Source: Escherichia coli (GTDB taxonomy: Bacteria > Pseudomonadota > Gammaproteobacteria > Enterobacterales > Enterobacteriaceae). From it: a DNA stretch of 64,000 nucleotides. The notes below the pieces were generated by a model. The model was not told where the DNA came from and made no database searches. It worked only from the letters and a program-made list of their open reading frames with translations. The position numbers and the translations under genes were made by a program. Below, piece by piece: positions 21,268-46,850 of the stretch (its first letter is position 1; the number at the start of each line of letters is the position of its first letter). Location of the stretch: NCBI RefSeq assembly GCF_036507355.1, contig NZ_AP027877.1. One strand, 5' to 3'.

Positions 21268-22308
21268 TCATTTATCGGAAGACGCCTGCCACAGATTCAG
21301 CTCGCCATCGGCGATATGCTGATCGATCTGCGCCAGCTCCTCGGTGCTAAATGTCAGATTATTCAGCGCCTGCACGTTCTCCTCAAGTTGCTCCGCGCGG
21401 CTGGCACCAACCAATACCGACGTCACTCGCTCATCTTTCAGCAACCAGCTTAACGCCATTTGCGCCATTGATTGTCCACGCTGCTGTGCCATGTCATTCA
21501 ATAATCGCAGGCTGTTGAGGTTGGCTTCGGTGAGCATTTTCGGCGTCAGACCACGAACTTTATTCCCTTCACGATGCATCCGTGAATCTTGCGGAATGCC
21601 GTTGAGATATTTTCCGGTCAGCAATCCCTGAGCCAGAGGAGTAAAGGCAATGCAGCCCACGCCGTTATTTTGCAGGGTATCCAGCAGGCCGCTTTTATCC
21701 ACCCAGCGGTTCAGTAAATTGTACGAAGGTTGATGAATTAACAGCGGAATTTTCCACTCGCGCAGTAACTCGACCATTTTTTGCGTCCGCTCTGGCGAGT
21801 AAGAGGAGATCCCGACATACAGCGCCTTACCGCTTTGTACCGCATGAGCCAGCGCAGAGGCGGTTTCTTCCATCGGCGTATTTTCATCGACGCGATGAGA
21901 GTAAAAGATATCGACATACTCAAGCCCCATACGCTTCAGGCTTTGGTCGAGGCTGGCGAGCAGGTATTTACGTGAACCGCCAGAGCCGTAAGGGCCGGGC
22001 CACATATCGTAGCCAGCCTTGGTAGAGATAATCAGTTCATCGCGATAAGCGGCAAAATCCTCCCGCAGCAGGCGACCAAAGTTCTCTTCTGCGCTTCCTG
22101 GAGGCGGCCCGTAATTGTTGGCTAAATCAAAGTGCGTAATGCCCAAATCAAACGCTTTGCGCAGGATCGCACGCTGTGGTTCCAGCGCGTTAACGTGACC
22201 GAAATTGTGCCATAAACCGAGCGATAACGCGGGCAGGCGTAAACCGCTTTTTCCGCAATAGCGGTATTGCATCTGCCCGTAACGTTCGGGATTCGCTAAC
22301 CAGACCAT
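21268..22308 (-). CDS. gpr: L-glyceraldehyde-3-phosphate reductase (aldo-keto reductase YghZ)
   Basis: 346-aa ORF MVWLANPERYGQMQYRYCGKSGLRLPALSLGLW...; recognised as Gpr/YghZ. Confidence 0.9.
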   Translation of the reverse strand: MVWLANPERYGQMQYRYCGKSGLRLPALSLGLWHNFGHVNALEPQRAILRKAFDLGITHFDLANNYGPPPGSAEENFGRLLREDFAAYRDELIISTKAGYDMWPGPYGSGGSRKYLLASLDQSLKRMGLEYVDIFYSHRVDENTPMEETASALAHAVQSGKALYVGISSYSPERTQKMVELLREWKIPLLIHQPSYNLLNRWVDKSGLLDTLQNNGVGCIAFTPLAQGLLTGKYLNGIPQDSRMHREGNKVRGLTPKMLTEANLNSLRLLNDMAQQRGQSMAQMALSWLLKDERVTSVLVGASRAEQLEENVQALNNLTFSTEELAQIDQHIADGELNLWQASSDK

Positions 22309-22464
22309 GACCTCTCCTTTCCACCGTTCAATTTCGAAACAATGTTTCTAGTTTAGCGATTCGCCAGCGCGTATCCCGTAGTCTGGCTCACAGAGTGACG
22401 AAAAACTGGGCAAAAACACGTGCTTATGCTTTGCTTAAAAAAACACCAACTGAGGAGTGCAACG

Positions 22465-23352
22465 ATGCCGCGTTTAACCGCCAAAGATTTCCCACAAGAG
22501 TTGTTGGATTACTACGACTATTACGCTCACGGGAAAATCTCGAAACGTGAGTTCCTCAACCTGGCGGCGAAGTATGCGGTGGGCGGGATGACGGCATTAG
22601 CGTTGTTTGATTTGCTCAAGCCAAATTATGCGCTGGCGACTCAGGTAGAGTTTACCGACCCGGAGATTGTTGCTGAGTACATCACGTATCCTTCGCCAAA
22701 TGGTCACGGCGAGGTACGGGGTTATCTGGTGAAACCCGCAAGGATGAGCGGCAAAACGCCAGCCGTGGTGGTGGTGCATGAGAATCGTGGACTGAATCCG
22801 TATATCGAAGATGTGGCACGGCGAGTGGCGAAGGCGGGGTATATCGCCCTGGCACCTGACGGCTTAAGTTCCGTTGGAGGTTATCCGGGAAATGATGATA
22901 AAGGTCGTGAGCTGCAACAGCAGGTTGATCCAACCAAACTGATGAATGATTTTTTTGCCGCAATTGAGTTTATGCAACGCTATCCGCAAGCGACAGGCAA
23001 AGTGGGTATTACCGGATTTTGCTATGGCGGTGGCGTATCGAACGCGGCGGCTGTCGCGTATCCGGAACTGGCCTGCGCGGTGCCGTTTTATGGTCGTCAG
23101 GCACCCACTGCCGATGTGGCGAAGATTGAAGCGCCTTTACTACTCCACTTCGCGGAACTGGACACCCGAATCAACGAGGGCTGGCCTGCTTACGAGGCGG
23201 CGTTGAAAGCCAATAATAAGGTTTATGAGGCGTATATCTATCCGGGGGTTAATCACGGATTCCATAATGATTCCACGCCCCGTTATGACAAATCTGCCGC
23301 CGATCTTGCCTGGCAAAGGACACTGAAATGGTTCGATAAATATCTCTCCTGA
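22465..23352 (+). CDS. yghX: Dienelactone-hydrolase-family protein YghX, apparently intact
   Basis: Uninterrupted ORF 22420-23352 (310 aa); likely start MPRLTAKDF at 22465; alpha/beta hydrolase with GFCYGG nucleophile-elbow-like motif. Confidence 0.8.
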   Translation: MPRLTAKDFPQELLDYYDYYAHGKISKREFLNLAAKYAVGGMTALALFDLLKPNYALATQVEFTDPEIVAEYITYPSPNGHGEVRGYLVKPARMSGKTPAVVVVHENRGLNPYIEDVARRVAKAGYIALAPDGLSSVGGYPGNDDKGRELQQQVDPTKLMNDFFAAIEFMQRYPQATGKVGITGFCYGGGVSNAAAVAYPELACAVPFYGRQAPTADVAKIEAPLLLHFAELDTRINEGWPAYEAALKANNKVYEAYIYPGVNHGFHNDSTPRYDKSAADLAWQRTLKWFDKYLS

Positions 23353-23470
23353 TAGGTTTATCTCTTACGGGATTACGTCTTAAACAAGCATGAAAAAATA
23401 GCGTGCGCAAAAGTCGTTCTTTGCCTAAAATATCGCTATATATGACAATATATAGTGAATGAGGTGAACG

Positions 23471-23758
23471 ATGAATAACCATTTTGGTAAAGGCTTAATG
23501 GCGGGATTAAAAGCAACGCATGCCGACAGTGCGGTTAATGTGACAAAATTCTGTGCCGATTATAAACGCGGTTTTGTATTAGGCTACTCACACCGGATGT
23601 ACGAAAAGACCGGAGATCGCCAGCTTAGCGCCTGGGAAGCGGGTATTCTGACGCGCCGCTATGGACTGGATAAAGAGATGGTAATGGATTTCTTTCGTGA
23701 GAATAATTCCTGTTCTACGTTGCGCTTTTTTATGGCCGGTTATCGCCTCGAAAATTGA
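23471..23758 (+). CDS. yghW: DUF2623 protein YghW
   Basis: 95-aa [30 protein letters not shown]...; recognised as YghW. Confidence 0.85.
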
Positions 23759-37799: not shown

Positions 37800-39149
37800 T
37801 TGGCGGGTTTTAACATCAAACATTGGTTTGCAGATGGCGCGTTTCGCACCATTATTCGCAATAGCGCCTGGTTAGGCTCCAGTAATGTCGTGAGCGCCTT
37901 GCTGGGTCTGTTGGCGCTCTCGTGTGCCGGTAAAGGGATGACGCCCGCCATGTTTGGCGTACTGGTGATTGTGCAATCGTACGCCAAGTCGATCAGCGAT
38001 TTTATTAAGTTTCAGACATGGCAGCTGGTGGTTCAGTACGGAACACCAGCATTAACCAACAATAATCCGCAGCAATTTCGCAATGTCGTCTCATTTTCCT
38101 TCTCGCTGGATATCGTCAGCGGCGCGGTGGCGATTGTCGGCGGCATTGCCTTACTGCCATTCCTTTCCCATTCATTAGGTCTGGATGACCAAAGCTTTTG
38201 GCTGGCGGCGCTGTATTGCACGTTCATTCCTTCAATGGCTTCCTCCACGCCGACCGGCATTCTGCGTGCGGTAGATCGCTTTGATTTGATTGCTGTACAG
38301 CAGGCGACGAAACCTTTTCTGCGCGCAGCGGGGAGCGTCGCAGCCTGGTATTTTGACTTTGGTTTTGCGGGTTTTGTTATTGCCTGGTACGTGTCGAATC
38401 TGGTTGGCGGCACCATGTACTGGTGGTTTGCCGCGCACGAATTACGCCGCAGAAATATCCATAACGCCTTCAAATTGAATCTGTTTGAGTCTGCCCGACA
38501 CATTAAAGGCGCGTGGAGTTTTGTCTGGTCAACCAACATTGCCCACTCCATCTGGTCGGCGCGTAACTCGTGCAGCACAGTGTTGGTGGGGATCGTGTTA
38601 GGACCCGCTGCCGCCGGGTTATTTAAAATCGCCATGACATTCTTCGATGCCGCCGGAACGCCAGCGGGTTTGCTGGGTAAAAGTTTTTACCCAGAGGTGA
38701 TGCGTTTAGATCCGCGCACCACCAGACCGTGGTTGTTAGGCGTGAAGTCCGGTTTACTGGCGGGCGGAATCGGTATTCTGGTGGCGCTCGCGGTGTTGAT
38801 CGTCGGCAAGCCGCTCATTTCGCTGGTGTTTGGCGTTAAGTATCTCGAAGCGTATGACCTGATTCAGGTGATGCTGGGCGCAATTGTGATCTCGATGCTG
38901 GGTTTCCCGCAGGAGTCATTGCTATTGATGGCGGGAAAACAGCGCGCTTTTCTCGTGGCGCAAACCATCGCCTCAATCGGCTACATCGTATTGCTGTTCA
39001 TGTTCTGTCATCTGTTTGGTGTGCTGGGAGCAGCGTTTGCTTACTTCGGTGGGCAATGTCTGGACGTGGCGCTCTCGTTAATTCCAACCTTAAAGGCATT
39101 TTTTCAGCGCCATTCCTTGCTTTATAACGCAGCCGGAGAGAAATCCTGA
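37800..39149 (+). CDS. yghQ: Polysaccharide-biosynthesis/MOP-flippase-family inner membrane protein YghQ (apparently full length)
   Basis: 449-codon ORF from a TTG at 37800 (true start may be an internal ATG); highly hydrophobic multi-TM protein; I recall K-12 YghQ as shorter. Confidence 0.8.
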   Translation: MAGFNIKHWFADGAFRTIIRNSAWLGSSNVVSALLGLLALSCAGKGMTPAMFGVLVIVQSYAKSISDFIKFQTWQLVVQYGTPALTNNNPQQFRNVVSFSFSLDIVSGAVAIVGGIALLPFLSHSLGLDDQSFWLAALYCTFIPSMASSTPTGILRAVDRFDLIAVQQATKPFLRAAGSVAAWYFDFGFAGFVIAWYVSNLVGGTMYWWFAAHELRRRNIHNAFKLNLFESARHIKGAWSFVWSTNIAHSIWSARNSCSTVLVGIVLGPAAAGLFKIAMTFFDAAGTPAGLLGKSFYPEVMRLDPRTTRPWLLGVKSGLLAGGIGILVALAVLIVGKPLISLVFGVKYLEAYDLIQVMLGAIVISMLGFPQESLLLMAGKQRAFLVAQTIASIGYIVLLFMFCHLFGVLGAAFAYFGGQCLDVALSLIPTLKAFFQRHSLLYNAAGEKS

Positions 39150-39973
39150 TGATGAGAAAATATTTCCCGCTTGAGGCGAGCGAGCATCTATTTGTTGCGA
39201 TTGAGGAAGATGATGTTGTTGATGCCCAGGTCAGTTTGCCGCCGACTATCGCACTAAGTTGTACCACCGAAATCATCCATGATAATTACGCGTTATGCCT
39301 GCAATTCTGGCTCAATGGCGTTGATCGTCAGGAATTACTTCGTTTAATTCGCAAACAAGCCAAAGGCGATGAGCTGACGACAGACGAGCGTAAACAGTTT
39401 AAATACATGCGAGCGCGCTACAAGCATCTACGTTTTGCACAACGGCTGTATTTAAAAAAGCATCAGGCCAGATTTTTATTCGGCAAAACGACCGTTTTTC
39501 TGGGACGTTTTCAGGACGGATTTCGTAACGGTAAGAAAAATATTGTGTCGTATTACGGCAACCTGTTACGAATTTATTTAAGCTCTCCGGTCTGGTCGTT
39601 GGTGAACTATTCATTACGCCATAGCCAGTTAGAAAGCGTAAGCGGTTTTATTGCCTATCGGCAAAAGCAAATGCATACCCTGAAAGAGATTATTGCCAAA
39701 CCGCGACTAACCGGCAGGGAATTTCATGATGTGCGAAAAATCATCAGCCAGCAGGTTTCTTATTACGACACCTTAAGATCGCTTGATCCTGAAAATAAAG
39801 AGGCGTTACAGATTTCCCGTTTCCTCGCCGCCATTAATGGCCTGATGGGGGATCAACACGACGACATGGTGGCGGATGATATGGAAAACCGCCAGTCGTA
39901 TGATGCACCGGTGGCGCTGGATAGCGATATTCGCCAGCGCTTAGAGCTGCTGATTTCGCGTTTTCCGCTATAA
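39149..39973 (+). CDS. Hypothetical basic protein (274 aa), no family recognised
   Basis: ATG overlaps the yghQ stop (TGATG), implying translational coupling; ORF MMRKYFPLEASEHLFVAIEEDDVV...; within a same-strand gene array. Confidence 0.65.
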   Translation: MMRKYFPLEASEHLFVAIEEDDVVDAQVSLPPTIALSCTTEIIHDNYALCLQFWLNGVDRQELLRLIRKQAKGDELTTDERKQFKYMRARYKHLRFAQRLYLKKHQARFLFGKTTVFLGRFQDGFRNGKKNIVSYYGNLLRIYLSSPVWSLVNYSLRHSQLESVSGFIAYRQKQMHTLKEIIAKPRLTGREFHDVRKIISQQVSYYDTLRSLDPENKEALQISRFLAAINGLMGDQHDDMVADDMENRQSYDAPVALDSDIRQRLELLISRFPL

Positions 39974-39981
39974 CCGGAGCA

Positions 39982-40545
39982 ATGATGTCATCTCGTTTGA
40001 TTATTGCGCTGATTATCATGCTCTTAGCCCCGGGTGTGCAGGCACACAATTTCGTCACTGGCAAAACGGTTACCCCTGTTTATATTCAGGAAGGCGGCGA
40101 GCTGCTTCTGAATAGCGACGACGAAATTCACTACCAAAAGTGGAACAGCACACAATTGGCGGGAAAAGTCCGAATTATCCAGTATATCGCCGGGCGTAAG
40201 TCGGCGAAGAAAAAGAACTCACTGTTAATTAAAGCGGTTGAAGCGGCAAACTTTCCGCAGGATCGTTTTCAGCCCACCACCATTGTGAACACCGATGATG
40301 CCATCTTTGGTACTGGCTATTTTGTTGTTGGCAAAATCGAAAAAAATAAACGCCACTATCCGTGGGCGCAATTCGTTATTGACGGCAATGGACAGGGACG
40401 CGTTGCCTGGCGCTTGCCGGAGCAGAGTTCAACCATTCTGGTGCTGAATAAAGCCGGGCAAATTCAGTGGGCAAAGGACGGCAGCCTGACGCCGGAAGAG
40501 GTAGATCATGTTATTGCGCTGGCGCAGAAACTGATCAATGAATAA
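39982..40545 (+). CDS. YtfJ-family periplasmic protein (paralog of E. coli YtfJ)
   Basis: 187-aa ORF with signal peptide; HNFVTGKTVTPVYIQEGGELLLNSDDEIHYQKWNSTQLAGKVRIIQYIAGR closely parallels my recollection of the YtfJ sequence. Confidence 0.7.
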   Translation: MMSSRLIIALIIMLLAPGVQAHNFVTGKTVTPVYIQEGGELLLNSDDEIHYQKWNSTQLAGKVRIIQYIAGRKSAKKKNSLLIKAVEAANFPQDRFQPTTIVNTDDAIFGTGYFVVGKIEKNKRHYPWAQFVIDGNGQGRVAWRLPEQSSTILVLNKAGQIQWAKDGSLTPEEVDHVIALAQKLINE

Positions 40546-40575
40546 AAAATTCAAAGGATTGAGGGCGTTAGTGAG

Positions 40576-41646
40576 ATGAAGCTGGTTGAACACTACATCA
40601 TGCGTGGTACGCGCCGTCTGGTGCTGATTATCGTCGGTTTTCTGATCTTTATTTTCGCCAGCTACTCCGCACAGCGTTATCTGACCGAAGCGGCAAATGG
40701 GACATTAGCTCTTGATGTTGTGCTGGATATCGTTTTCTACAAAGTGCTGATTGCACTGGAGATGTTGTTACCTGTTGGTCTGTATGTGTCAGTTGGCGTG
40801 ACGCTAGGGCAGATGTATACCGACTCGGAAATTACCGCTATCTCTGCGGCGGGGGGCAGTCCGGGACGCTTGTACAAAGCCGTTCTTTATCTGGCGATAC
40901 CGCTAAGTATTTTTGTCACCCTTCTGTCGATGTATGGTCGTCCGTGGGCTTATGCGCAGATTTATCAACTGGAGCAGCAGTCGCAGTCGGAGCTGGATGT
41001 TCGCCAGTTGCGGGCAAAGAAATTTAACACTAACGATAACGGACGAATGATCCTTTCGCAGACGGTTGATCAGGATAATAATCGCCTGACTGACGCGCTG
41101 ATTTATACTTCTACTGCCAATCGAACCCGCATTTTCCGCGCCCGTTCGGTTGATGTGGTTGACCCATCACCCGAGAAACCGACCGTTATGTTGCACAACG
41201 GCACTGCCTATCTTCTCGATCATCAGGGGCGTGACGACAACGAACAGATCTACCGTAATCTGCAATTACATCTGAATCCGCTGGATCAAAGCCCTAACGT
41301 CAAACGCAAAGCGAAATCGGTCACGGAGCTGGCGCGCTCCGTCTTTCCAGCCGATCATGCCGAACTGCAATGGCGACAAAGCCGTGGCCTGACCGCATTG
41401 TTGATGGCGCTGCTGGCCATTTCATTAAGTCGGGTAAAACCGCGGCAAGGGCGATTTTCAACATTATTGCCACTGACGTTGCTGTTTATTGCCATTTTTT
41501 ATGGCGGCGACGTCTGCCGTACGCTGGTGGCTAACGGCGCGATTCCCCTCATTCCTGGTTTGTGGTTAGTACCCGGACTCATGCTAATGGGCCTGCTGAT
41601 GCTGGTCGCACGCGACTTCTCTTTGCTGCAGAAATTTTCCCGATGA
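40576..41646 (+). CDS. LptF/LptG-family (YjgP/YjgQ) permease paralog 1
   Basis: 356-aa ORF; N-terminal TM segments; region LEMLLPVGLYVSVGVTLGQMYTDSEITAISAAG parallels the LptF motif [29 protein letters not shown] recalled from memory. Confidence 0.8.
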   Translation: MKLVEHYIMRGTRRLVLIIVGFLIFIFASYSAQRYLTEAANGTLALDVVLDIVFYKVLIALEMLLPVGLYVSVGVTLGQMYTDSEITAISAAGGSPGRLYKAVLYLAIPLSIFVTLLSMYGRPWAYAQIYQLEQQSQSELDVRQLRAKKFNTNDNGRMILSQTVDQDNNRLTDALIYTSTANRTRIFRARSVDVVDPSPEKPTVMLHNGTAYLLDHQGRDDNEQIYRNLQLHLNPLDQSPNVKRKAKSVTELARSVFPADHAELQWRQSRGLTALLMALLAISLSRVKPRQGRFSTLLPLTLLFIAIFYGGDVCRTLVANGAIPLIPGLWLVPGLMLMGLLMLVARDFSLLQKFSR

Positions 41647-42722
41647 ATGTTTTCAGTCGCTATTTAATCCGTCATCTCTTTCTCGGTTTTGCCGCCGCCG
41701 CAGGGCTATTGCTGCCGCTTTTTACCACCTTCAACCTGATTAACGAACTGGATGATGTCAGCCCGGGCGGTTATCGCTGGACTCAGGCGGTGCTGGTGGT
41801 GCTAATGACCTTACCGCGCACACTTGTCGAACTTTCGCCATTTATCGCCTTATTGGGAGGGATTGTCGGCCTGGGGCAGCTATCGAAAAACAGTGAGCTT
41901 ACCGCCATTCGCAGCACGGGGTTTTCTATCTTCCGTATTGCACTGGTGGCGCTGGTTGCCGGGATATTGTGGACTGTTTCGTTAGGCGCGATAGATGAGC
42001 GGGTAGCGTCGCCATTGCAGCAACAGGCGCTGCAAATCAAATCGACCGCCACCGCGTTGGGGGAGGACGATGACATTACCGGCAATATGCTGTGGGCCAG
42101 GCGCGGCAATGAATTTGTGACGGTGAAATCGCTGAATGAGCAGGGCCAGCCTGTGGGCGTGGAGATTTTTCATTATCGTGACGATCTCTCGCTCGAATCC
42201 TACATTTATGCACGCAGTGCCACCATTGAAGACGACAAAACGTGGATCCTGCATGGTGTGAATCATAAAAAATGGCTGAATGGCAAAGAAACGCTGGAAA
42301 CATTAGATAATCTTGCCTGGCAATCGGCCTTCACCAGTATGGATCTTGAAGAGCTATCGATGCCGGGGAATACTTTTTCTGTCCGTCAGCTTAATCATTA
42401 CATCCATTATTTGCAGGAAACCGGGCAACCCAGCAGCGAATACCGCCTTGCACTGTGGGAAAAACTGGGGCAACCCATCCTGACCCTGGCGATGATTTTG
42501 CTGGCTGTGCCGTTTACCTTTAGCGCCCCGCGCTCGCCAGGGATGGGTAGCCGTCTCGCTGTAGGCGTCATCGTTGGCTTACTCACCTGGATCAGCTATC
42601 AAATCATGGTCAATTTGGGATTGCTATTTGCGTTAAGCGCACCTGTTACCGCGCTCGGTTTACCGATAGCGTTTGTGCTGGTGGCGTTGAGCCTGGTGTA
42701 TTGGTATGACAGACAACATTAA
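41643..42722 (+). CDS. LptF/LptG-family (YjgP/YjgQ) permease paralog 2
   Basis: ORF 41562-42722 trimmed to ATG 41643 (MNVFSRYLIRHLFLGF..., 359 aa) overlapping the upstream stop (ATGA); same architecture as paralog 1. Confidence 0.8.
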   Translation: MNVFSRYLIRHLFLGFAAAAGLLLPLFTTFNLINELDDVSPGGYRWTQAVLVVLMTLPRTLVELSPFIALLGGIVGLGQLSKNSELTAIRSTGFSIFRIALVALVAGILWTVSLGAIDERVASPLQQQALQIKSTATALGEDDDITGNMLWARRGNEFVTVKSLNEQGQPVGVEIFHYRDDLSLESYIYARSATIEDDKTWILHGVNHKKWLNGKETLETLDNLAWQSAFTSMDLEELSMPGNTFSVRQLNHYIHYLQETGQPSSEYRLALWEKLGQPILTLAMILLAVPFTFSAPRSPGMGSRLAVGVIVGLLTWISYQIMVNLGLLFALSAPVTALGLPIAFVLVALSLVYWYDRQH

Positions 42723-42723
42723 A

Positions 42724-42750
42724 CCCGCCGTGGCGCAACACCACGGCGGG
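42724..42750. terminator. Hairpin between convergent operons (putative bidirectional terminator)
   Basis: CCCGCCGTGG-CGCAACA-CCACGGCGGG perfect 10-bp stem in the 34-bp gap between the two convergent stops. Confidence 0.5.
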
Positions 42751-42756
42751 CTCACA

Positions 42757-43929
42757 TTACTGCTTCAGAGTAGCAAATGCCTGAATGATGGCATCGATTT
42801 GCTCACGACTGTGGGCAGCGTTTACGCTACAGCGCAGCAGCGTGATGCCTGCAGGCGCGGCAGGTGGCAGGATAAGATTCACATAAACGCCCAGCGAAAT
42901 AAGCTCGCGCCAGATGCGTAAACCTTCCTCTTTCGAACCGATTATTACCGGCACTACCGGACTAATATGTGAACTTAACTCATAACTCAGCTTTTGCAGC
43001 CCGTCATACAGATGGTTGGCATTATCCATCAGTTTTTGCCGCAACTCTGGTTGAGTGGCAATGGTTCTTAACGACGAGCGCACGGTTGCAATGCAGGAAG
43101 GAGAAGGGGAGGCGGTAAAAATATACGGACGACTGCCGTAGCGCAGCACTTCCATCGCTTCCGAACCCACGGCAAAACCACCAATAGAAGCCAGGCTTTT
43201 ACTGAAGGTGCCAACGATAATATCCACATCATCTTCAACGCCAACGGCTTCAACCAGCCCGCGCCCCGTTGCGCCTAACACGCCAAACGAGTGAGCTTCA
43301 TCGACAATTAAATATCCGCCGAGACGACGTTTGATATCAACAATTTCCGCCAGCGGCGCAACGTCACCGAGCATACTGTAGATGCCCTCAACGATGATAA
43401 TCGCCTCTTTCGCCCGTTCACCGAGGCGAACCATGCGCCGTTCCAGATCTTTAGCATCGTTATGGCGGAAACGAATAATTTCCGCGCCACCGAGAGAACA
43501 GGCGTCATAAATACTGGCGTGGCTGTCAGCATCCAGTAACACCACGGCGTTATGGTCGGCAAGTGCGCTGATGACGCCTAAATTAGCGGTATAACCGGTT
43601 GAAAAAACGATAGCGGTAGGGCGATTGAAAAACTCAGCAATCTCTTTCTCTAACGCCAGATGCGGCGCATAACTGCCGTTTGCCATACGAGAACCGGTGG
43701 TGCCGGTGCCTTGGGCCGCTAACGCTGCCTGACCTTCGGCGATGGCATCATGATTGAAGGTTAATCCGAGATAATTATTGGTCCCGGCCAGAATCACTTT
43801 TTTATTGCCGATCCGGCCTTCGGTGGCGGAATACACTTCATCAATACAGGTGCCAAACGGTGTTAACCCGTTGTCACTAAATTGCAGACGCTCGCCAGCA
43901 AGGCGCGCATATTTATCGTATAGCCCCAT
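42757..43929 (-). CDS. PLP-dependent alpha-oxoamine synthase, serine-palmitoyltransferase-like
   Basis: 390-aa ORF; DEAHSFGVLG and GTFSKSLASIGGF (PLP-lysine motif of the AONS/SPT/KBL family); ATG overlaps the stop of the upstream ACP gene. Confidence 0.85.
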   Translation of the reverse strand: MGLYDKYARLAGERLQFSDNGLTPFGTCIDEVYSATEGRIGNKKVILAGTNNYLGLTFNHDAIAEGQAALAAQGTGTTGSRMANGSYAPHLALEKEIAEFFNRPTAIVFSTGYTANLGVISALADHNAVVLLDADSHASIYDACSLGGAEIIRFRHNDAKDLERRMVRLGERAKEAIIIVEGIYSMLGDVAPLAEIVDIKRRLGGYLIVDEAHSFGVLGATGRGLVEAVGVEDDVDIIVGTFSKSLASIGGFAVGSEAMEVLRYGSRPYIFTASPSPSCIATVRSSLRTIATQPELRQKLMDNANHLYDGLQKLSYELSSHISPVVPVIIGSKEEGLRIWRELISLGVYVNLILPPAAPAGITLLRCSVNAAHSREQIDAIIQAFATLKQ

Positions 43930-44177
43930 TATTTATTCTCCAGCCATGGAAGTAGAGTTTCCATTAATTGCGCAGGGGTTTTGACATCCAGCAGAATATT
44001 AATAGGAATGGAAATATCGAATCTGTCTTCCAGCATCATTAAGAGATCCATCACTTTGATCGACTCCAGGCCAAGATCGTTGACGAGATCGCTGTCGGGC
44101 TTAATTTCCACACCGTTTTCGACCAAATCCTGTAAACAGGAAAGGATGTAATCCATTACTATTTCACGATTTACCAT
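43929..44177 (-). CDS. Acyl carrier protein (dedicated, non-AcpP)
   Basis: 82-aa acidic ORF with DLGLESIKVMDL phosphopantetheine-attachment-type serine motif. Confidence 0.8.
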   Translation of the reverse strand: MVNREIVMDYILSCLQDLVENGVEIKPDSDLVNDLGLESIKVMDLLMMLEDRFDISIPINILLDVKTPAQLMETLLPWLENK

Positions 44178-44208
44178 AGAAACGTTAACACACCTTTAAA
44201 CAAGACAA

Positions 44209-45123
44209 TCAAAATAGCCCGTTGCGTAATGCGTGTTCCAGGCTAATCCCGGGAAACCAATTAATATCTTCAGAAATACGGTTATTACTTGCCGACCAGT
44301 CGGCGTGGGTTAATTCACGAATTTTCGAGCGGGTCAGCATAGGTTCTTTACCTGCCAGGCGACTCAACGCGGTACTGATATCCGCAAGGCAGGTGAGTAC
44401 CGGCAGAGGAATGCCAACCATTCGCACGGAACCACAACGGGCGTCGGCGGCAAGTTGCTGTACGCGTTGCCAGTCATAGCCGCCAGCGACGCCATCGCAT
44501 AATTCATAGGTTTGCGTCTGTACAGTTTCGGCGCTTAACCACTGACCCACTGCTTGCGCAAAATCGGTGACATGCAGGAAAGAGAGCTGTGTATCTGGTG
44601 CACCAAGTCGTGGCAGCAGGCCGCGCAGCATCCAGTCAAACAGCGGTTTTAACTCTTTATCGCCGGGACCATACACGGCTGTCGGGCGAAAAACGCCCAG
44701 CGTAATTTCGTCAGCCATTGCCGTCAGCCGTTGTTCGGCGACGTGTTTGGAATTTGCGTACCAGGAGAGCTCGGGATGGCGCGCCGCCAGCGAAGAGATA
44801 AACAGAAAACGTTGGCAAAAGCCGCTCTCTTTTGCTGCTTGCATCAGGCGCAGGCTGCCGTCAACGTTACAGTGGGTAAAAATCTCTTCTTTGTGTCCGC
44901 GCACTTGCCCGGCGCAATGGACCACCGCGCTGGCTCCGGCAACCAGTTCGCTAAGCGAATGTGTATCTTCCAGCGAACCGCGCACCCAAGTAAGATTATC
45001 ATTGACGTGAGCGCGGGCAGTACGCGTCAATGCGCGAACGTGAAAGCCGCGGGCGAGCAGGTTATCGATAATATATTTACCGATAAAACCGGTAGCGCCC
45101 GTCACCGCGACAGTTTGATTCAT
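44209..45123 (-). CDS. NAD(P)-dependent epimerase/dehydratase-family (extended SDR) reductase
   Basis: 304-aa ORF; N-terminal VTGATGFIGKYI Rossmann motif; YANSK (YxxxK) catalytic motif; start overlaps the upstream stop (ATGA). Confidence 0.8.
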   Translation of the reverse strand: MNQTVAVTGATGFIGKYIIDNLLARGFHVRALTRTARAHVNDNLTWVRGSLEDTHSLSELVAGASAVVHCAGQVRGHKEEIFTHCNVDGSLRLMQAAKESGFCQRFLFISSLAARHPELSWYANSKHVAEQRLTAMADEITLGVFRPTAVYGPGDKELKPLFDWMLRGLLPRLGAPDTQLSFLHVTDFAQAVGQWLSAETVQTQTYELCDGVAGGYDWQRVQQLAADARCGSVRMVGIPLPVLTCLADISTALSRLAGKEPMLTRSKIRELTHADWSASNNRISEDINWFPGISLEHALRNGLF

Positions 45124-46841
45124 GCCAGGGATTCCTGCACATGAAGGCTTGCAGCATAAGCCTTCTGATAACGTTTTTTCGCTTCCGCACGGGCAGGCTT
45201 GCCGGAGGACGTTCGGGGAATGCTGTGGGGCGGCAACAGATCGATAGCCGCGGTCACGCCAAATTCGCTTTGGATCCGTGCTGCCAGCGCGTGGATAAGC
45301 TGCCCGCGACGTTCTTCATCGCTGATCCGACACTGGATCTGCAAAATGATTTTTTCCTGGACGGTAACAAAAGCAATCGCATCGCCAGAATGAATTTCCG
45401 GTTCCTGTTCCGCTATATATTCAATATCCTGCGGCCAGATATTACGGCCACGAATAATAATCAGATCTTTAATGCGTCCGGTGACATACAGATAACCATC
45501 CAGCAGATAACCGAGGTCGCCAGTGTCTAACCAGCCCGTCGCGGCAATCTCGTCTTGCGAAGCCTGGTCGCCAAAGTAACCGCTCATCAGACTGGGACCG
45601 GAGATGCAAATATGGCCTACCACACGTTCCGCGACCGGCATACCTGCTTGATTGCGGATTTCAATACCATGTTCCGGCAACGCTTTGCCGCAGTTGACGA
45701 AAGTCGATACGGCGCGTGTCTCTGCACCCGGCGCGACGGCTTTACCCTGATATTCGAGGATGTCGCGATCCACTTCGTTAACTACAACCCCGGAGGCTTC
45801 ATCAGAGAAGCTGACAGCCAGCGCATTTTCTGCCAGGCCGTAGCACGGCATGAAAGTTTTATCGTCAAAGTTAACCTGACGGAAACATTCAGCGAATTGA
45901 TGGAGTTGTTCTGCGGAGATGGGTTCTGCACCAATACCAGCGACGCGCCAGCAGGAAAGATCCAGTTCAGCGAGATCTTTTTCATTCACGCGGCGCTGGC
46001 ACAATTCATAGCCAAACGGCGGCGCAACGGAAACGGTGCCGCGATTTTTACTGATCAATTTAAGCCATTGCAGAGGACGCATGGCAAAATCCTGAGTGCG
46101 CAAATAATCTACTGAAAGTTGCGTGGCGACGGGGGTCAGGAGAAAGCCGACCAGTCCCATATCATGGTAGAAAGGCAGCCAGGAGACGCAGCGGTCGCCA
46201 GGGCGTAATTTAATGCCGTCGTGGCTTATAGCACGTAGATTAGCCATCACTTCGCGATGGGTGATAATGACGCCACGGGGAAAACGGGTGCTGCCGGAGG
46301 TGTACTGGAGGTAGGCGATATCGTTCGGAACTGGACGCTGGAGCGCAACATCGGCTTCCGGTAATGCCTTAAACCAGGCGTGGCTTAAAACATGTAATTC
46401 GGGGTTGTCATGCGTCGCGGCATTGACCAGTGGCAACCACTCATCACCAGTGATAATGGCTGCGGGCTGGCAACTTGTCAGTAAACCCTGCAATTTGGCG
46501 CTCCAGGAATCCCGCTGACCAACGCCCATTGGAATCGCCAACGGGACGGCGACTAAGCCGGCATACTGGCAGGCAAAAAAAGCCTCTACGAACCCGCTAC
46601 TTGTTTCGGCAATCAGTGCCACGCGATCGCCTTTTTTCAGGTTCAGCGATAACAACCGCTTCGCACCAGCTTCGGCACGCGCTTTTAACGTCTGATATTC
46701 CAGTTGATCTTCAAGTTGGCAACGTCTGTCATAAAAATTCATTCCAGCGCTACTCAGAGCGGCGTAGTCCAAAGCATCAACCAGCGTTGGAAAATCGGCA
46801 TAGCGTATAGGTAGGGAATGCGTAAAGATTTTATTAGACAT
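45120..46841 (-). CDS. Fatty acyl-AMP ligase / acyl-ACP synthetase (adenylate-forming enzyme)
   Basis: ORF 45120-46850 (GTG) trimmed to ATG 46839-46841 (MSNKIFTHSL...); AMP-binding core motifs YTSGSTRFPRGV and TGDLGY...GRIKDLIIIRGRNI. Confidence 0.85.
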   Translation of the reverse strand: MSNKIFTHSLPIRYADFPTLVDALDYAALSSAGMNFYDRRCQLEDQLEYQTLKARAEAGAKRLLSLNLKKGDRVALIAETSSGFVEAFFACQYAGLVAVPLAIPMGVGQRDSWSAKLQGLLTSCQPAAIITGDEWLPLVNAATHDNPELHVLSHAWFKALPEADVALQRPVPNDIAYLQYTSGSTRFPRGVIITHREVMANLRAISHDGIKLRPGDRCVSWLPFYHDMGLVGFLLTPVATQLSVDYLRTQDFAMRPLQWLKLISKNRGTVSVAPPFGYELCQRRVNEKDLAELDLSCWRVAGIGAEPISAEQLHQFAECFRQVNFDDKTFMPCYGLAENALAVSFSDEASGVVVNEVDRDILEYQGKAVAPGAETRAVSTFVNCGKALPEHGIEIRNQAGMPVAERVVGHICISGPSLMSGYFGDQASQDEIAATGWLDTGDLGYLLDGYLYVTGRIKDLIIIRGRNIWPQDIEYIAEQEPEIHSGDAIAFVTVQEKIILQIQCRISDEERRGQLIHALAARIQSEFGVTAAIDLLPPHSIPRTSSGKPARAEAKKRYQKAYAASLHVQESLA

Positions 46842-46850
46842 ATACACCAC

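Follow-up and report, generated by a model that had tools for sequence, protein, structure and literature searches.

Intact yghX in Escherichia coli, its probable two-step loss in K-12 and the conserved N-terminal module of the encoded hydrolase

The gene yghX is annotated as a pseudogene in the K-12 reference of Escherichia coli, and this raises a question about the species as a whole: is the broken gene its usual condition, or is it K-12 that has departed from an enzyme that other strains keep? And, where the gene is kept, what would the enzyme do, and in which compartment of the cell? These questions are addressed here for a stretch of 64,000 nucleotides of E. coli DNA (the window, whose own positions are used throughout). 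With high confidence, yghX is present in it as the intact ancestral allele, encoding a 295-residue hydrolase of the dienelactone hydrolase (DLH) family, and K-12 has lost this gene in two steps.

The continuous dienelactone-hydrolase-like frame of 295-310 amino acids that a first-pass annotation had read from the letters alone holds up: a single uninterrupted open reading frame occupies positions 22420-23352 of the plus strand, counted in the ORF listing as 310 amino acids from a GTG, and an in-frame ATG at 22465 gives 295 amino acids. This ATG is most likely the true start, which makes yghX an intact CDS at 22465-23352 (+) of 295 codons and a TGA stop, with the coordinates of the RefSeq CDS in syntenic genomes. 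A Shine-Dalgarno-like GAGGAG (22452-22457, +) lies 7 nt ahead of it and is the same in K-12, the RefSeq CDS of the near-identical strain F9792 (888 nt) starts at the equivalent ATG, as does that of GPT24-02, and the same codon is the start in all close orthologues. Furthermore, the K-12 peptide YqhI, which has been detected experimentally, begins at the equivalent position (PMC6001520, Table 1). The GTG at 22420 was considered as a real start and rejected, given that RefSeq, the orthologues and the detected YqhI all use the ATG; the 15-codon in-frame extension that it opens (22420-22464, +) is probably untranslated, this GTG being merely the mechanical start of the ORF. The yghX segment of the window is 99.8% identical to that of F9792, and the two proteins are identical.

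How, then, does K-12 differ? That its yghX is a frameshifted pseudogene, which the first-pass annotation had stated, is correct: MG1655 annotates b4658 as a pseudogene and PGAP flags the copy of C3026 as "frameshifted". The pairwise alignment that had been proposed for locating the frameshift was run, and K-12 is not identical in frame to the window across this region, since it lacks TA at 22573-22574 and C at 22934. The first is a 2-bp deletion in codon 37 (TAT, CDS nt 109-110, + strand) and the second a 1-bp deletion in codon 157 (ACC, CDS nt 470, + strand); both in the alignment and in a scripted pairwise comparison, the window copy carries neither lesion. The net change of -3 puts the 3' end of the K-12 gene back in the original frame and leaves the 120 codons between the lesions out of frame, with a first stop that ends the product at 47 residues; this product is precisely YqhI, annotated in MG1655 as a separate 47-codon CDS, yqhI (b4755), over the 5' end of yghX. 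K-12 and the window thus share the locus, the promoter region, the ribosome-binding site and the start codon, at 98.9% nucleotide identity, but YqhI consists of 36 native YghX residues followed by 11 out-of-frame ones, and no hydrolase is made in K-12. YqhI has been detected in K-12 by epitope tagging (PMC6001520) and, as it is made from the same start codon, the expression signals of yghX are active in that strain.

The label of a dienelactone-hydrolase-like protein is accurate, and the ORF lies far beyond chance, as follows from its matches to two family models: the NCBIfam model NF041440, "YghX family hydrolase", with 586.5 bits against a cut-off of 460 (E 8e-177, protein residues 3-294 over model positions 1-292 of 292), and the Pfam DLH model PF01738, with 163.9 bits against a gathering cut-off of 21 (E 5e-48, residues 85-294). 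The alpha/beta-hydrolase catalytic domain comprises residues 59-295 (22639-23349, +) and matches PDB entry 4ZV9 at E 5e-161. An AlphaFold (AF2) model of the window protein has a mean pLDDT of 96.7 and superimposes on 4ZV9 with a TM score of 0.99 and an rmsd of 1.0 Å. This crystal structure is that of the same gene at the same locus in O157:H7 Sakai (ECs_3884, "EcoDLH"), also of 295 amino acids, from which the window protein is separated by three amino-acid differences (V69F, R93K and S135N). The structure covers about residues 59/60 to 294/295, leaving the N-terminal 59 without an experimental structure; otherwise there is no difference of substance. Among more distant proteins, the nearest other solved relative is a putative DLH of Klebsiella pneumoniae (3F67, "KpDLH"; 28% identity, E 2e-23), which has the motif G-F-C-x-G-G, lacks the N-terminal module and belongs to a different subfamily. 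ClcD of Pseudomonas knackmussii (1DIN, 4U2B; EC 3.1.1.45) shares with YghX the alpha/beta-hydrolase fold (TM ~0.84 between the YghX model and 1DIN) and the Cys-His-Asp positions, but at ~25% identity, without the N-terminal module, and as a cytoplasmic protein encoded within a chlorocatechol pathway operon, whereas YghX has no such pathway genes as neighbours.

In ClcD, residues 123, 171 and 202 form the Cys-His-Asp triad. A HMMER alignment of YghX to the ClcD variant 4U2C (C123S) pairs these positions with Cys186, the predicted nucleophile, which lies within G-F-C-Y-G-G (codon 23020-23022), with Asp233, the predicted triad acid (23161-23163; ClcD Asp171), and with His264, the predicted triad base (23254-23256; ClcD His202), all on the plus strand. 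Across an alignment of 32 relatives with 36-68% identity, Cys186 and His264 are at least 90% conserved and Asp233 is invariant. By analogy with ClcD, the chemistry of YghX is likely to be covalent catalysis via an acyl-thioester on Cys186: this residue would attack the carbonyl of an ester, a lactone or a similar compound to give the acyl-thioester intermediate, which a water molecule activated by His264 and Asp233 would then hydrolyse. Regarding the substrate, the purified catalytic domain (EcoDLH) showed no detectable phosphotriesterase activity on paraoxon or FDDEP, versus a weak activity of KpDLH; the crystal showed its active-site Cys in an oxidised or modified state, and the DLH family name is, according to the same preprint, no guide to substrate (bioRxiv 10.1101/2025.10.30.685675). 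The literature search returned no enzymatic activity data for YghX, including the dienelactone hydrolysis of EC 3.1.1.45, and the neighbours gpr, yghW and hyb include no catabolic pathway genes.

The only part of YghX that is not routine is its N-terminal module, residues 1-58 (22465-22638, +), delimited on the basis of PF23678, the family alignment, motif counts and AlphaFold. The Pfam family PF23678, "YqhI-like", matches residues 1-36 (E 1.5e-21). As a side observation, this family was built on a segment that belongs to a hydrolase, as its N-terminal module, and the idea of the original paper that YqhI has a glycosyltransferase-like domain is unsupported by the yghX context. Further along the module, the window protein has an S-K-R-E-F-L box (codons of K27-R28 at 22543-22548), after which come 12 uncharged residues (YAVGGMTALALF), Lys52, Pro53 (at -6), A56-L57-A58 and Thr59. 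The consensus of the family runs from LYDxYxH through a few residues to (S/D)RRxF(L/M/I), a stretch rich in Ala/Gly/Ser/Thr whose composition, but not whose position, is conserved across relatives, a proline and AxA. RR is found in 57 of 72 N-termini and KR in 13, and the uncharged stretch has at least 13 residues in 42 of the 72 and exactly 12 in 25.

Is this arrangement an export signal? There is about an even chance that residues 1-58 of YghX are a Tat-type signal with an unusually long conserved n-region, in which the KR variant of the twin-arginine box, the short uncharged stretch, the proline at -6 and the A-L-A before Thr59 would form the signal proper, and which would send the folded YghX to the periplasm. 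What leads to this reading is the layout of the motifs, together with the matches of TIGR01409 (TAT_signal_seq) to 7 of the 32 relatives, these being RR-bearing (at E up to 1, the best being 0.004), the variable-length insertions that two relatives (P0254 and P0264) carry directly after AxA, as expected behind a cleavage site, and the fact that the catalytic domain folds without residues 1-59, which are absent from the crystal construct 4ZV9. The module resembles Tat signals in its polar n-region, in the x-F-L that comes after a basic pair, in a Gly/Ala-rich stretch of weak hydrophobicity, in the basic residue and the proline of its c-region, and in AxA; unlike them, it is 58 amino acids long, has a positionally conserved 20-residue extension, KR and 12 uncharged residues, and is predicted to be helical. 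A natural KR variant of a Tat signal peptide does occur in TtrB of Salmonella. Several traits of the sequence would nonetheless argue against export: the consecutive arginines of the Tat motif S/T-R-R-x-F-L-K are absent from the window protein, its 12 uncharged residues fall below the usual minimum of 13, and Tat-signal profile HMMs (including TIGR01409 and PF10518) gave no match to it. The predicted structure also counts against export, as helices with a pLDDT of 91-96 are unlike typical cleavable signal peptides and suggest a folded helical hairpin. Literature searches on Tat export or a periplasmic location of dienelactone hydrolases, and on the localisation of YghX, returned nothing relevant.

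The same features can be read differently, and a possible though rather unlikely alternative is that residues 1-58 are a folded helical mini-domain (for a lid, docking or oligomerisation) of a cytoplasmic enzyme, whose likeness to a Tat signal would be superficial or vestigial. In the AlphaFold model of the full-length protein, residues 1-58 form three helices with a pLDDT of 91-96 (a range that holds for residues 1-60), and the same helices (11-21, 27-37 and 44-51) are predicted for residues 1-62 modelled by themselves from an alignment of their own, with a pLDDT of 91-96 over residues 11-40 and of 96 over 11-30. Such a mini-domain would also be in line with the ~20-residue extension ahead of the RR box, which is positionally conserved (LYDxYxH) and has a Pfam family of its own, with the fixation of KR in 120 of 120 close enterobacterial orthologues together with an uncharged stretch of only 12 residues, and with the accumulation to detectable levels of the 47-aa peptide left in K-12, in which residues 1-36 are preserved (PMC6001520); moreover, a catalytic free thiol would be better suited to the cytoplasm. 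Against it stand the canonical Tat layout of RRxF(L/M/I), Ala/Gly/Ser/Thr-rich stretch, Pro and AxA, the linkers of variable length directly after AxA, the relatives that match Tat models (PF10399, the Rieske N-terminal Tat signal, in 4; TIGR02811 in 2; besides those of TIGR01409), and the crystallisation of a catalytic domain devoid of residues 1-58.

An uncleaved signal anchor of Tat type, Rieske-like, by which the hydrolase would be tethered to the periplasmic face of the inner membrane, is improbable. The four relatives matching PF10399, the single one matching TIGR01416 and the confident helical prediction for the hydrophobic segment would suit it, but the uncharged stretch of 12-17 residues, with Gly-Gly in it and a mean Kyte-Doolittle hydropathy of 1.41, offers little length and little hydrophobicity for spanning a membrane, and the conserved AxA with a proline at -6 points to cleavage. 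To return to the Tat-type signal, it may be, at somewhat less than an even chance, that the module is either an unusual Tat signal that combines a folded helical-hairpin extension, placed before the twin-arginine box, with a KR fixed in the enterobacterial clade, or else a new helical module with a regulatory role that derives from such a signal.

Whatever the role of its N-terminus, is the gene of the window strain alive, and is its intact frame the older state? The suggestion that this strain may retain the ancestral yghX has been borne out by full-length orthologues, by the position next to gpr that the gene has kept, and by an intermediate allele found on the SNP background of K-12. There are 120 close full-length orthologues of 294-299 aa and 85-92% identity in Citrobacter, Pseudescherichia, Enterobacter, Kosakonia, Leclercia and others, and in Citrobacter and Enterobacter yghX adjoins the same divergently transcribed aldo-keto reductase gene as in the window, gpr, which encodes L-glyceraldehyde 3-phosphate reductase (21268-22308, -). 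Nei-Gojobori dN/dS is 0.03-0.11 between the window allele and other E. coli alleles and 0.023 against Pseudescherichia. The intact yghX is ancestral and under purifying selection. K-12 and the window are separated by 9 synonymous changes and 1 non-synonymous change, and substitutions so few indicate that the inactivation in K-12 is recent.

It is very unlikely that the gene, its open frame notwithstanding, is already non-functional in the window strain, either silenced or crippled by missense changes. Two results would fit such a state, namely that no activity has been found so far for the protein and that a scan for sigma-70 promoter and terminator consensus over 22250-23520 gave no promoter-like site on the plus strand upstream of yghX (and no terminator). 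The negative promoter scan is, however, uninformative, because the detection of YqhI shows that the start region is expressed in K-12. Conversely, the protein is identical to the F9792 copy, the triad is intact, dN/dS is 0.02-0.11 across all comparisons, and the upstream region and the start codon support translation even in K-12; a silent pseudogene in the window was rejected on these grounds. Judging by the intact triad and the low dN/dS, YghX of the window strain would be a functional enzyme.

The surroundings of the gene give no indication of a pathway: in a syntenic genome, the neighbourhood consists of exbBD, yghA, yqhA, gpr, yghW and the hyb operon. The downstream neighbour yghW (DUF2623; 23471-23758, +) has its own promoter, as a genomic SELEX study lists, for the spacer between the two genes, a constitutive sigma-70 promoter (TTGCCT-17-GACAAT; PMC3946193), by which yghW is apparently transcribed independently of yghX. 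This published promoter, in the spacer at 23353-23470, was not flagged by our consensus scan.

How common is each state of the gene? Short allele-specific junction queries were run with megablast against 5,426 complete E. coli genomes, a match being counted only where the exact junction was there. The locus itself is present in 5,425 of them. The 2-bp deletion allele is present in 1,251 of the 5,426 genomes and the 1-bp deletion allele in 1,198, and 4,221 are undeleted at the second site (codon 157), so that the two second-site classes, adding up to 5,419, partition the collection. In the query for the undeleted first site, SNPs close by keep the 28-mer seed from matching and limit the count to 3,337 genomes, and due to this undercount the intact fraction was taken from the second site. 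On this basis, ~77-78% of the genomes have these sites intact, and the K-12 lesions occur in ~22-23%, with both of them in ~22%; the collection over-represents this deleted class. Along with many K-12 laboratory derivatives, the class with the 2-bp deletion includes isolates from pigs, humans, rivers and other sources, which makes the deletion a trait of a natural lineage. The difference of ~53 genomes (~1%) between the two deletion counts fits carriers of the 2-bp deletion alone, and two strains, 203740 and SW070910, have precisely this allele and differ from the window at the very ten SNPs by which K-12 does. An allele of this kind on the SNP background of K-12 shows that the gene was already dead, through the 2-bp deletion, when it lost the further 1 bp. 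The loss of yghX would thus have taken two steps, a -2 change in codon 37, leaving only the 47-aa YqhI, and then a -1 change in codon 157, and the window strain would never have acquired either. That the K-12 "frameshift" might instead be a sequencing or annotation artefact, with no real difference from the window strain, has a negligible probability and was rejected, given the recurrence of the same deletions in 1,198-1,251 complete genomes, from K-12 derivatives as well as natural isolates that were sequenced independently, the existence of the intermediate allele and the experimental detection of YqhI with its out-of-frame tail, and given that nothing was found in favour of it.

Some individual alleles deserve a mention of their own. 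In 203740 and SW070910 (gene at 466-1351 of the fetched segments), the frame is open from codon ~38 to the natural stop, and a signal-less hydrolase is conceivable from an internal start, for instance Met42. In strain CX15 (gene at 466-1356 of its segment), an inserted in-frame GTG extends the V-V-V-V run at residues 100-103 to five valines; its YghX of 296 aa is annotated as intact, and the GTG repeat appears to be slippage-prone. Strain IAL7255 keeps no more of the queried segment than its final ~200 bp, annotated as a fragment of a "dienelactone hydrolase family protein", which suggests an independent partial deletion of yghX. Finally, one match to the yghX segment sits on a plasmid record.

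Elsewhere in the window, positions 37800-46850 (~9 kb) contain ORFs of 449, 274, 187, 356 and 386 aa on the plus strand and of 390, 304 and 576 aa on the minus strand, which match a cluster of the syntenic genome with LPS-biosynthesis/flippase-like proteins, a YtfJ family protein, LptF and LptG, the same cluster being also annotated with a serine palmitoyltransferase, an acyl carrier protein, an epimerase and a fatty acyl-AMP ligase. In MG1655, yghO and a shortened yghQ flank an IS5, and the cluster is short of ~7.7 kb; the gap looks like an IS5-associated deletion and, as such, like a second K-12-specific loss in the window. For the 24 kb at 12000-36000, the best match among the 5,426 complete E. 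coli genomes keeps the whole region in one syntenic block but reaches no more than 99.3% identity, and the source lineage is therefore not closely represented among them.

Regarding its standing, the intact yghX is the majority, ancestral and already annotated state in E. coli, neither rare nor new: RefSeq gives the name "YghX family hydrolase" to thousands of intact copies, and the K-12 pseudogene and YqhI annotations, the NF041440 model, the crystal structure and at least one biochemical test are already public. It is K-12 that is unrepresentative of E. coli at this locus, and this has a practical side, as the "yghX pseudogene" serves engineers as a neutral integration site in K-12/W3110 (PMC7677707); an integration at yghX in most other E. 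coli would disrupt a conserved gene under selection. The series of alleles (intact, -2 only, and -2 with -1) represents a clean, stepwise decay of a gene into a pseudogene within one species. As for the N-terminal module, if it is a Tat signal, YghX would be a periplasmic cysteine hydrolase and a Tat substrate that K-12-based inventories have missed because K-12 lost the gene; if it is a new helical module, the YqhI of K-12 would be the surviving and still expressed hairpin of that module.
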